From: Octopus vulgaris
Lineage: Eukaryota
Length of the DNA stretch: 64,000 nucleotides
Assembly: GCA_951406725.2 (NCBI GenBank)
Contig: OX597814.1
Location: 100,068,001 to 100,132,000 of the forward strand
Direction: 5' to 3'
Positions 395-62,433 of the stretch are shown piece by piece; positions within the stretch are counted from its first letter, which is position 1; each line of letters starts with the position of its first letter. A program made the translations under genes and the position numbers. The notes beneath the pieces are model-generated. The model made no database searches. It saw only the letters and a program-made list of their open reading frames with translations, and was not told the DNA's origin.

Positions 395-545
395 AATCAC
401 ATGCAGCACGGAATGTTGTCAGTGAACAGGTCGCAGACTCAAAGCGACGAAAATATTTTGACAAATTTAAATGTTGAAGTGGATCTAACGGTTCTTGTGT
501 GTTTCTTAATTGGCTTATAAAAACTTTCCACGCTGCAATTGTTAT
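395..545 (+). mobile_element. Short element in (TA)n tract with imperfect terminal inverted repeats; Penelope-like terminal repeat candidate
   Basis: ATGCAGCACGGAATGTT near the 5' end vs AACTTTCCACGCTGCAAT near the 3' end; flanked by TA repeats; contains a hammerhead fold. Confidence 0.55.
416..464 (+). ncRNA. Minimal type-I hammerhead ribozyme motif, G3-C8 core variant
   Basis: TTGTCA|GTGAACA|G|GTCGC-agactcaaa-GCGAC|GAA|AATATT|T|TGACAA: stem I 6 bp, stem II 5 bp, palindromic stem III. Confidence 0.6.
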
Positions 546-584
546 ATATACATATATATCTAAAAAGGAGTATTTTACGTTGAC

Positions 585-750
585 TCAGTCATGATTGTGA
601 CCATCGGCCTCACAATCATGAGGTAGCGAGTTCGATTCCCGAACCGGGCTGTGTGTTGTGTTCTTGAGTAAGACACTTCGTATTATGTTTTTCAACTTCA
701 CTCAACTACAGAAATAAATGAGATGCGACGTCACCAGTGCTAAGCTGTAT
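585..750 (+). mobile_element. tRNA-derived SINE family B, degenerate partial copy
   Basis: GTTCGATTCCC B-box followed by TTCTTGAGTAAGACACTT, similar to 25449-25700. Confidence 0.6.
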
Positions 751-872
751 CGCTCTTTGATATGTAAACGGTTTGAATGATCAGGCGACCAACACATATT
801 TAATCATTCATGCAGGTTCATGTAGAACTGTATCCAATGCACGCACGCACACACACACGACCGCCGTCGCCG

Positions 873-1030
873 CTGCTGTGTGATAAATAGCTTGCATACC
901 ATCCGCATGGTTTCGGGTTCAATCCCACTGCGCGGCACTTTGGGCAAGTGTCTTCTACTATAGCCTTAGGCAGACAAATGCCTTGTGAGTGGATTTGATA
1001 GACGGGAACTGAGAGAAACCCGTCGTATGT
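873..1030 (+). mobile_element. tRNA-derived SINE family A, 5' half ending at (TG)n
   Basis: GGTTCAATCCC B-box; TTGGGCAAGTGTCTTCTACTATAGCC...CCTTGTGAGTGGATTTG matches 24143-24305. Confidence 0.85.
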
Positions 1031-59099: not shown

Positions 59100-59340
59100 C
59101 TTCTACAGTGGCCAATGAAACAGAGGGCCTAAACAAAGTACTTCAAAGCTTCTAAAGAGTCAACTGTCGTACTAGAAATAGCTCGAGAATGTATTTCAGT
59201 CAATTCGAATACTAATCTTTAAAAACAAAGGAATGTTTGAAGAACAATTAGTCATAGCCATATAAAGAAAATGAACACGCAAGGCTGGAACGGTTTCGTC
59301 ATAGTGATACTTGTTGATCAGGGGCGACTCGGGACATAGG
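59100..59340 (+). pseudogene. Possible decayed LINE (RTE-like) RT N-terminal fragment
   Basis: EEQLVIAI / KKMNT / KAG in shifted frames. Confidence 0.3.
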
Positions 59341-60839
59341 AACGACAATAGCAAACAGTGCCTGAAAACTGATGTGACACTTAGGAATTTAAAAGTACAG
59401 AAATGGGCAAATTTATGAAAGAAAGAGAGCAAGAGCGAGGCCAGGGTTTTATGTTTATATGTTGGCATTTCGAAGTAAATGATTGCCAACAGCCGTTTTC
59501 TACCGAAAGTGAATGGTAGTAAAGAGAATTGGAATGGGGGGGGGCATTAAGATTTGAAACAGACGTCAATAAATCAGGTTTAACTGTCACAGGCAGATCA
59601 AACACTATACGAGATTCCGGAAACATTTCACGTAATAATACATAGAAGTATATGACGCTCTATGTATAAACAGACACACATTCACCTGCAGTGATTGTGT
59701 GTGTGAGTGTGTGTGTGTATGCGTATGTAAATATATAAGTATAAATCTGTACATACGTAAATCTTTTGCATATGTAAGTGTATATATGTATGTATATCTA
59801 TCTATTCTCTCTCTCTTTCTTTCTCTCACTCTCTCTCTCTCTATCTGTCTGTGTATACACACGCACACACACACACACACACACACACACACACACACAC
59901 ACACACACACACACACATATATATATATATATGTATGTATGTATGTATGTATGTATATAAACACATACATATAAACCTGCATGCGTATTACTCTAATACA
60001 GAGTACGTAAAATTGTTTTACAGGTATATATTATTTGTTTTTAGCAAATTAATTTTTTTTCCGAATCTCGTCGGGTGATAAATAAATGAAAGAAAAAAAC
60101 TGTTAAAATGGCTGTTCCACAATGCAACTTTCTGTTTTGTAGAGAGAAAAACAGCCAGACAGAGGAAAATTCTTCATATATATAGAAGATCCCAAAATAA
60201 AATTGCAGAAGGCAGAAAGAGAAACGAAAACTTAATACAGAGAGAGATAGGGAGAGAGAGAGAGAGAGAGAGAGAGAGAGAGAAAGATTCTTTTATTATT
60301 TTATACGTTTCAGCCCTAAATCAGTGACCATGCTGGAGCACAACCGGTGTTATCACCTCTTCAACGGCTAATCTTATGTTACTGGCTTTTGGTGAACGAG
60401 GGAGATCGACACGGCCGCTTTCCTCCGAGTTCCCTGCCTTGATATAGATTCGTTTGGAACCTTGGATAGCAGCAGGTCAAGTTGCATATATATATGTTCA
60501 TACAAAAAAAATCAAACTGCTTCCGTGACTCATAGCCATTTCAGTGACCGCGTGACCACTTCCGGAAGCTACGTTCGCTACCTGCAATTAGTCCCCACCC
60601 CGGGTTCCCCCTACCCCATTTAGTCGAACAAATAAATACAGGATTAATGATGACTTGATTGAAATCGGATGCATTTTTTAAAAACTCACTTTTATCTATA
60701 TTTATCATGTTTAGTATGTGTTAAAGTGTATATTTTTTTAATTTTGTTCATAATTATATTTTCACTCCTGTTGGACCCTTCTTATTTTCCATGAGAGCTT
60801 TTTTTCTATTTGGCAGCAATCATTTTCATTACCTCCATC

Positions 60840-61110
60840 CCCAAGAAGGAACAATCATTTAGCTGAGCTTAAAGAAGACATTTAGTTAGCTGTACAGAAG
60901 CTAACACCTGAAATGCCCCAAAATGTGTTTCGCACCGCTAAGGAGAGATTTGAAGTATGCAGGAATACAGACAGGTTGAAAACTTTCAATAAAAGTTTGA
61001 CGTAAGATTATAAATCTATTCGTTTTGGTAATAAACATAAAATTTTGACAGTTTATTTTTAAAATTTACTCAATTCCATTGAAACACAGTTAATTCTGAA
61101 ACACCCCGTA
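60840..61110 (+). mobile_element. Tc1/mariner-superfamily 3' fragment with TIR-like end
   Basis: LAELKEDI*LAVQKLTPEMPQNVFRTAKERFEVC; end AATTCTGAAACACCCCG|TA. Confidence 0.5.
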
Positions 61111-61797
61111 TGGTGTAGCGTTGTTAGTTGTTGTGTTGCTTAGGTAAATATTAAAATCAAAGGTCTTCTCGCCATAAATATCCAATTTTTCAGTTGAGCA
61201 TATTGTAGTATATAGTAGTATATAAGGAGTATATCATCCAACTTGTAGCTCTCCTTTATAGGCGTGGCTGTGTGGTGAGAAGTTTGCTTTCCAACCATGA
61301 CGCCTTGGATTCAGTCCCACTGTGCGGCACGCTGGACAATTCTCTTTCATTACGGCTCTGTACTGACCAAAGCCTTGTGTGTTTTATAGTTTCCATTACT
61401 GTATTGATATGTAAAATAACACGTACAACTCATTTAGTATTGTCATATAAGAAACAAACAGAACTGAGTGTATGTAATTGATATTTTTTCTACTTCAAAT
61501 ATTACATTTTTTCCGCATATAATGCACACCTACAGGAGGAGTACATCTACATATATAATAACATTTTGAATATGGCTCCCGAAAAAGAGTAAAAGATGAA
61601 AACAGGTGTATGAACAACAAGCAAGAGTATTTGTTTGACGCTCCGGAAAAATGTAAAAACCTTTTACGCTTCGAGCCTACGCTCTTCAACAGGAAGGAAT
61701 AAGAGAAAATAAACAAATAGAGAATGATAAAATCTTCAGCGATCCATCTGTCCACACACACACATATATACATATAAATATATATACATATATATAA

Positions 61798-62433
61798 ATA
61801 TGTAAACATAATCAAAAAGGGTAATAACATAAGTGATTATTACCAGTGGCCTAGCCACAAAAGACGAATTAGTCATTAGACAAAATATTATTCATATAGA
61901 AATATAATAAAAGGCTTCCAAATAAGGAAGCTTAGTGCTAGAGACACAAAGAGGGATAAATTCATGGAAAGAATGAAAATCAAAAACATTTACCATTAAA
62001 GATATATCCCAGACTGATCAGTTTCTACCTCTTTCTAGCAAAACAGACTTAATGTGTTTGCCAAGGTTCGTCAGTGGGAAGCCTTCTTAATCCTAGATAC
62101 ACAGAGCGTTAGAGCACATGTAGATCTAACGGTTTGTATATCTTAACTTTTCAAACCTCCGCGCAGACGCAAAACATACCCGGCGACAGAGAGCATGCCG
62201 GTAAAAAAAATGTTACAATTTATCAAGTAATATGTAAACATAATCAAAAAGGGTAATAACATAGCCTTGGCTAACACATTCTGTCTGTTTTGCTAGAAAG
62301 AGGTAGAAACTGATCAGTCTGGGATATATCTTTAATGGTAAATGTTTTTGATTTTCATTCTTTCCATGAATTTATCCCTCTTTGTGTCTCTAGCACTAAG
62401 CTTCCTTATTTGGAAGCCTTTTATTATATTTAT
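61798..62433 (-). mobile_element. Penelope-like terminal structure: ~148-bp essentially perfect inverted arms (~61901-62048 / 62283-62430) plus a ~34-bp direct repeat (~61798 and ~62229)
   Basis: Arms read as exact reverse complements; TATGTAAACATAATCAAAAAGGGTAATAACATA is duplicated; flanked by TA tracts. Confidence 0.85.
62007..62079 (-). ncRNA. Type-I hammerhead ribozyme with canonical core
   Basis: TCCCA|CTGACGA|ACCT-tggcaaa..tttgcta-gaaag-AGGT|A|GAA|ACTGATCAGT|C|TGGGA; GUC cleavage triplet. Confidence 0.8.

Follow-up and report, generated by a model that had tools for sequence, protein, structure and literature searches.

The window analysed here is a stretch of 64,000 nucleotides of the Octopus vulgaris contig OX597814.1 (assembly GCA_951406725.2, positions 100,068,001 to 100,132,000), in which an earlier note had pointed out seven groups of short elements with hammerhead ribozyme-like motifs: F1 (416), F2 (10115), F3 (16951), F4 (24091), F5 (25850/26249), F6 (31181/31343/39636/61660) and F7 (62007/62265). 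Fragments of mariner/Tc1 and of long interspersed nuclear element (LINE)-like elements are also present, and microsatellite masking covers 13,083 of the 64,000 bases. The coordinates and letters given for the sites were correct, and so was the statement that the groups bear no similarity to each other, none of the 48 pairs obtained by self-BLAST of the masked window joining two of the seven families. The hammerhead architecture proposed for all of them holds for 416 and 62007, which are intact, and for 25850/26249, where the motif is completed by the union of two arms, but 10115 does not rise above chance level and 16951 and 24091 display a 3' half only; the 31181 family resembles a widespread motif type of Penelope-like elements (PLEs), but in broken copies. 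In place of the announced 12 or so motifs, the 13 sites of the seven groups therefore comprise two intact motifs, one by union, one family by resemblance, two halves and one unsupported site.

A strict hammerhead descriptor gave a single match in the window, 416-464, against a mean of 0.02 in 100 shuffles. Using a tolerant scorer on masked DNA, two matches reached a score of at least 22, 416-464 (25.5) and 62007-62079 (22.9), a level found in 434 shuffles with a mean of 0.002 and a maximum of 1. Under looser rules the other sites scored 16.7 (25850), 16.6 (31343), 14.4 (26249), 14.2 (31181), 13.4 (10115), 12.5 (24091) and 12.1 (16951, left arm), with no parse for 39636; these values are only roughly comparable with the tolerant scan, which used masked DNA and stricter stem rules and omitted 25850 and 31343. 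Given that the shuffle background amounts to 0.6 matches per window at scores of at least 16 and 2.5 at scores of at least 14, sites scoring 17 or less are not significant singly, and it is only the two intact motifs that exceed the shuffle control. The 3' halves of the motif (GAAA, a palindrome of at least 8 nt and H) numbered 16 in the window, compared with a shuffle mean of 7.6 that was raised to this value in 1 of 300 shuffles. When restricted post hoc to palindromes starting with AC they numbered five, four of them independent, against 0.94, and 8 of 1000 shuffles contained at least four. Hammerheads were absent among the 150 of 550 Rfam matches listed for the window, which microsatellite and miRNA matches dominate, and Rfam gave two matches on 400-520, both by chance. 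A canonical-core parse at 43826-43894 on the minus strand (score 18.7) of the tolerant scan was rejected, as it lies inside LINE-like endonuclease coding sequence in a frame that resembles, at E 2e-7, the fragment of a LINE-like endonuclease located at 19735-20115; hammerhead parses therefore arise easily.

The F1 motif consists of stem I (416-421/459-464, 6 bp), the core (422-428), an extra G (429), stem II (430-434/444-448, 5 bp), GAA (449-451), a palindromic stem III (452-457) and U17 (458), with the predicted cut at 458|459. The family was sampled by aligning the contigs of four runs to 396-600 at 80% likeness, a filter that favours like copies. This gave 5635, 4875 and 2938 contigs in the DNA runs of organisms A, B and E, respectively, and 536 in run X20 of organism A, whose RNA status is only guessed and which provides no evidence of expression. 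The summed depth was about 10^6 in the DNA runs, compared with 28-81 for listed single contigs, and is not a copy number. At a threshold of at least 4%, no variant letter was listed at 422-431 or 449-460 in any of the four runs, and the exchange of the usual core pair for G3-C8 is therefore family-wide in F1. Of the ten variable positions of the motif, five belong to CpG sites (2-7%) and four to loop II; the tenth is position 461 (21-32% in the DNA runs), where the change converts a U-A pair of stem I to U.G; the non-CpG variants fall in loop II (3/4, p ~0.02, post hoc) or preserve a wobble. As a control, the F1 core pattern deprived of its stems matched 82 viral loci, in none of which (0/82) both stems reached 4 bp, and the F1 pattern itself had no matches across the metagenome, viral and prokaryote collections. 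The earlier expectation of several non-canonical cores was thus overstated: the core at 416 is the only one demonstrated as a family trait, the other odd cores being most simply the result of decay.

The contigs also provide the ends of the F1 copies. All eight opposite-strand joints listed connect a 5' start at 401-419 to an internal point at 445-529, and thus fit inverted truncated 5' copies. Among nine further joints, of a kind that is not given and with a single row each, six go back from 457-490 to 407-419. The joint from 467 to 416 in run X3 has a summed depth of 3227, compared with 36-59 for the listed X3 contigs, and the letters between its two sides continue the plus strand of F1, implying a tandem of about 60 nt made of the motif alone. 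Contigs extending upstream of 397 (30 in X3 and 6 in X20) lead into a longer parent.

The second intact motif belongs to F7, in which the terminal repeats match at 35/35 positions and the inverted copy starts one base beyond the inner repeat. Both stem I and stem II of the motif have 5 bp. The 432-nt monomer has no open reading frame (ORF), and no PLE domain was found in the unit, whose predicted folding is more stable than 100/100 shuffles (z -3.1) and conceals the ribozyme in the monomer. For the isolated motif the lowest-energy predicted dimer is a double hammerhead, 9.2 kcal/mol below two monomers. The F7 3' half matched 15 prokaryote loci, none of which (0/15) was preceded by the stem I and core of F7. 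As a young element whose dimer is strongly predicted, F7 offers a ready assay substrate. A word of 11-12 nt is common to F1 (482-493) and F7 (62123-62134), in opposite orientation to their hammerheads; we take it to resemble a Myb-type site, and one of its matching bases is private to the F1 copy of the window.

The two F5 arms carry their damage at different positions, and combining them yields a complete canonical motif (0/2000 column shuffles), with stems I and II of 4 and 7 bp, this being the sole positive union among 82 pair-strands. The coordinates of all groups are given in Table 1.

Table 1. Positions of the hammerhead-related features in the window.
Feature	Position	Strand	Remarks
F1 element	401..550	+	very high-copy; many copies begin at ~401 and end at ~543-560, a subset is longer on both sides (depth profile, loose ends, opposite-strand joints; runs X1, X3, X11, X20)
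F1 hammerhead	416..464	+	intact minimal type-I, G3-C8 core (descriptor and tolerant scorer)
F2 hammerhead-like parse	10115..10223	-	two core defects, imperfect palindrome, 78-nt segment separating the core halves; unsupported
F3 outward inverted pair	16946..17221	.	73.6% over 280 nt; 3' half only at 17015-17026 (-), decayed at 17145-17156 (+)
F4 3' half	24091..24134 (half 24094-24105)	-	8-nt palindrome, broken core; dispersed repeat starts at 24142
F5 left arm	25818..25908	-	hammerhead 25850-25902 with canonical core but without G12; arm ends 5 nt from (TA)n
F5 right arm	26243..26334	+	81.5% to left arm; hammerhead 26249-26302 without C3 and with damage in stem I
F6 copy a	31181..31218	-	A6 lost; points away from copy b
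F6 copy b	31342..31379	+	A6 lost
F6 copy c	39636..39670	+	5' core canonical; damage in stem II and in the palindrome
F6 copy d	61660..61697	-	A6 and A15.1 lost
F7 unit, 432-nt period	61797..62263	-	perfect 35-nt direct repeats 61797-61831 and 62229-62263; 3' end at TA-rich tract
F7 hammerhead	62007..62079	-	intact, canonical core, 10-nt palindromic stem III, C17 (scorer and dimer folding)
F7 inverted 5'-truncated copy	62265..62437	+	98% over 173 nt; begins just past the core, ends in (TA)n

The F6 copies differ in the fourth stem I pair, which is G-C in copy c and C-G from copies b and d together. A pattern derived from F6 had no matches in viral contigs and matched at least 119 metagenome loci. 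Among the matches listed, 75 are distinct, and U16.1, which lies outside the pattern, continues 66 of them; the first two stem I pairs are formed in 43 of these 66, compared with a mean of 18 when partners are shuffled (0/2000), and C-G, G-C, U-A and A-U are all seen at the second pair. Covariation of the stems is therefore clear for F6-type motifs of other animals, and for these only. A PLE profile matched 6 of the 119 loci listed (the reverse transcriptase (RT) domain was confirmed in L030), and in five of the six the PLE RT or endonuclease is encoded upstream of the motif in the same orientation, with 94-676 nt between the motif and the end of the nearest domain. These loci show the nature of the F6-type motif in other animals; they do not link the families of the window to PLE parents, because their flanks are not common with the window. 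In nine of the metagenome loci (L028, L044, L048, L049, L051, L057, L073, L112 and L118) a G, or U in L057, follows the ACGU palindrome, with a short segment before stem I, possibly representing a hammerhead family with G17 or with a shifted register. In L060 (605-688) two opposed, near-adjacent F6-type motifs face outward as in the window. A fifth F6 fragment of the window (30256-30323) has only the part 3' of the hammerhead and is 87% identical to 31399-31463.

Beyond the motif itself, several of the groups have an anatomy in common. Opposed copies are found in four of the seven (16951, 25850, 31181/31343 and 62007), all of them outward with the left copy on the minus and the right copy on the plus strand. 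Inverted 5'-truncated copies adjoin the 5' end in F3, F5, F6 and F7 in the window, as they do in F1 by the listed joints. The microsatellite setting described earlier was borne out: 8 of the 13 3' ends, which were picked by hand, have a masked microsatellite within 20 nt, compared with 12.6% of random unmasked positions, the one control used. A palindromic stem III is present in the sequence of F1, F5, F6 and F7, and a double hammerhead is the best predicted dimer for F7, not for the F1, F5 or F6 copies. Words resembling splice donors, branch points and acceptors were seen by eye 3' of the F7, F3 and F6 motifs and in an F1 loose end behind 543, as expected if introns of the PLE pseudo-long terminal repeats (pLTRs) had been retained.

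Taken together, it is likely that the sites are 5'-truncated terminal fragments of several unrelated PLE families and short derivatives of these, each bearing a type-I hammerhead of the minimal form, for which cutting is predicted in dimers alone, and that one very abundant family carries G3-C8 throughout. In such a scheme a PLE protein with RT and GIY-YIG domains would nick AT-rich or (TA)n DNA, and reverse transcription would begin internally, at a distance of about 30-210 nt downstream from the hammerhead. Synthesis would usually halt early, often with an inverted truncated copy added to the 5' end, so that the resulting pairs face outward and have a microsatellite at either 3' end. The palindromic stem III may pair between two motifs of tandem or paired transcripts, which would be cut after H17; cleavage is predicted in dimers only, weak and probably assisted by protein. 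Inserted copies would decay, which would account for most odd cores.

Several results weigh against this interpretation. Neither a PLE RT nor a GIY-YIG domain is present among the 177 ORFs of the window (Pfam), and a 34-sequence PLE profile had no window match, this profile being built around one metagenome PLE and so able to miss Hydra-clade proteins. With no RT/GIY-YIG gene found in the window, PLE membership is no more than probable; the Penelope-like reading of the earlier note can be kept for 416, 62007, 25850/26249 and, by motif, the 31181 family, and no parent ORF was linked to any of the families. A missing window ORF is as expected of truncated ends. All four F6 copies are broken, with A6 lost in three of them, and F6 fails the majority union; its full union is not significant, being matched by 388 of 5000 nulls. 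Only 6 of the 119 metagenome loci listed have a PLE match, one of them on the opposite strand, and these loci have the motif alone in common with F6, with no BLASTN match to the window. Within F1, two-sided compensatory changes were not seen in the contigs of the four runs. For this family two monomers (2 x -12.8) and another dimer (-29.6) are both predicted to be more stable than the double hammerhead (-22.0), and in the predicted monomer fold G3 is able to pair with U17; because the active dimer is not the lowest-energy fold, F1 activity is uncertain. Finally, the uniformity of F1 could stem from one burst off a single master copy and not from selection.

The published systems to which these elements can be compared are taken here as described in the available parts of the cited sources. 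The pLTR hammerheads of PLEs (PMC4209133) have an extra nucleotide after A9 and a G10.1-C11.1 pair, like F1 and F6; as in the window, their stem III is palindromic, single motifs are dispersed, opposed pairs lie 100-700 bp apart and a genome holds many unrelated families. F6 is similar to the Neptune row from Acropora in Fig. S3 of that paper. By a count by eye, the 56 representatives of this figure, which has no cephalopod row, have C3-G8 in 53 cases, U3-A8 in two, U3.G8 in one and G3-C8 in none, unlike F1. PLE copies have been described as 5'-truncated, with an inverted truncated copy adjoining the 5' end, a tail of 30-40 nt and (TA)n as target (PMC8557442), and an outward inverted 5'-truncated copy, (TA)n targets and a palindromic stem III are known from both sources (PMC4209133, PMC8557442). 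Hydra-clade PLEs carry the hammerhead near the 3' end, a long AC...GU stem III and (TA)n targets, as observed here (PMC8557442). In File S2 of that paper stem III starts with AC in 26/26 Hydra-clade rows, likewise in F3, F4, F5 and F7, and the stem III of F5, of Hydra-clade type, is identical to that of Penelope-1_HM; all 34 rows of the file have C3, unlike the G3 of F1. It is in stem III type and target only that the elements of the window resemble this clade. Hydra-1_Obim of Octopus bimaculoides is a Hydra-clade PLE targeting (TA)n (PMC8557442), and its hammerhead motif was not found in the window. Of 12 short motifs, ten from the window and two from F1 loose ends, 11 were absent from the supplement of PMC8557442, where line breaks may hide some, and one had unrelated matches. 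Hammerheads in the ends of microsatellite-targeting PLEs, an octopus example included, are therefore already known.

The new element is the family-wide G3-C8 core of F1, a real and testable variant. Natural covariation of the 3-8 pair (PMC3088659) retains the pair and changes its identity, as in F1, the natural cases described there being U3-A8. In the sources compared G3-C8 appears only as the engineered C3G/G8C mutant with partial activity (PMC11167929, PMC8495972), whereas in F1 it is natural. This double mutation partly restores cleavage of the anole PLE hammerhead, itself protein-dependent (PMC11167929), and a G3-C8 variant was less active with C17 (PMC3884650; data not shown there). No natural G3-C8 hammerhead was present in the literature examined; Lunse et al. 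(2017), Arkhipova et al. (2017), file 1 of Cervera (2014) and the supplementary data accompanying Perreault (2011) and Li (2026) stand outside this comparison and could hold one.

A possible reading, to which we give a minor share and which is compatible with the PLE interpretation, is that the hammerhead releases tandem or circular RNA from which F7 and F1 are copied as non-autonomous units of the retrozyme type. Non-LTR retrozymes (PMC7229834; bioRxiv 10.64898/2026.07.22.740005) are short, ORF-less, AT-rich and pLTR-derived, with a type-I hammerhead and high self-pairing, like F7, and have units of 51-972 bp (bioRxiv 10.64898/2026.07.22.740005), a source and size range that favour this reading. 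So do the 432-nt period, the perfect terminal repeat, the missing PLE domain and the stable folding of F7, as well as the go-back joints of F1, with the short tandem implied by one of them. The terminal redundancy of F7 is explained by a single insertion from a tandem or circular 432-nt template; it could also be a target-site duplication, and one of 35 nt would need a second, 98% identical insertion alongside. Retrozymes, however, are defined by tandem arrays and circular RNA, and the window contains no array. Unlike retrozymes, F7 has the inverted 5' copy and microsatellite ends of PLEs, the F1 go-back joints are of unstated kind and single rows, and a subset of F1 contigs runs upstream of 397 into the longer parent. 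Most sites could as easily be 5'-truncated ends of ordinary PLEs; the non-autonomy once ascribed to the whole group has evidence for the 62007 unit only and a lead for the 416 family.

It is also conceivable, on the unlikely side, that the F1 motif is a relic, dead or at best marginal as a catalyst, which has been retained because proteins bind its structure or has simply been multiplied from a single master copy. The C3G/G8C double mutant restores activity only in part and insertion of the anole PLE in vitro is unaffected by hammerhead mutants (PMC11167929), eight of nine Xenopus retrozyme dimers tested failed to cleave, and the active F1 dimer is not the predicted lowest-energy fold. Against this, C3G and G8C are two changes that restore the key pair with the remaining core intact, a result more easily reached through selection on the fold, and U17 in place of C17 avoids a G3-C17 trap. 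That the foldbacks are remnants of miniature inverted-repeat or other DNA transposons with hammerhead parses by chance is very improbable: chance suffices to explain 10115 and the complete parses at 16951 and 24091, the match at 43826-43894 lies in coding sequence and other inverted repeats of the window have no motif, but the arms are unequal, one being truncated at its inner end, the motifs are in sense toward the outer ends, and shuffles, union and joints contradict this reading for F1, F5 and F7.

The role of the PLE hammerhead is open, its activity being low, dependent on protein and unnecessary for insertion in vitro (PMC11167929). A lineage in which the 3-8 pair has moved to G-C and which has nevertheless been massively amplified is a natural experiment in this respect. 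If F1 cuts, there is little room for doubt about selection on catalysis, and descriptors demanding CUGANGA or UUGANAA overlook an entire class; if it fails to cut, some other reason accounts for the retention of the fold. As a speculative extension, which we think rather doubtful, the G3-C8 family, probably with thousands to tens of thousands of copies and common to several related animal species, would propagate with an active natural hammerhead and would have spawned a ribozyme-only tandem of about 60 nt, beside a separate retrozyme-like monomer of 432 nt still mobilised by PLEs.

No single copy of F2, F3, F4 or F6 has a complete core. The F2 score of 13.4 lies below the level at which shuffles yield 2.5 matches per window. 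In F3 neither core nor stem I was found, and the union of its arms never yields a core.

Several other repeats were noted in the window. A near-perfect inverted pair at 16501-16861 (136 nt, 99%) lies between TA tracts without a hammerhead, has about 46 additional nt on one side only, resembling a PLE tail, and has a small palindromic hairpin in common with the region 3' in F7 at about 61845-61865. At 23958-24074 a short inverted pair beside a TA tract adjoins F4, and no hammerhead was found in it. Direct copies at 8293-8626 and 9004-9300 (73%) have a canonical 5' core half with no matching 3' half, and are possibly a 'half-core' PLE end. A 197-nt inverted repeat (41510-41706 and 42651-42847, 92%) in a Tc1-like remnant surrounds an RT fragment at 41934-42608, of which a second copy is located at 63528-64000.

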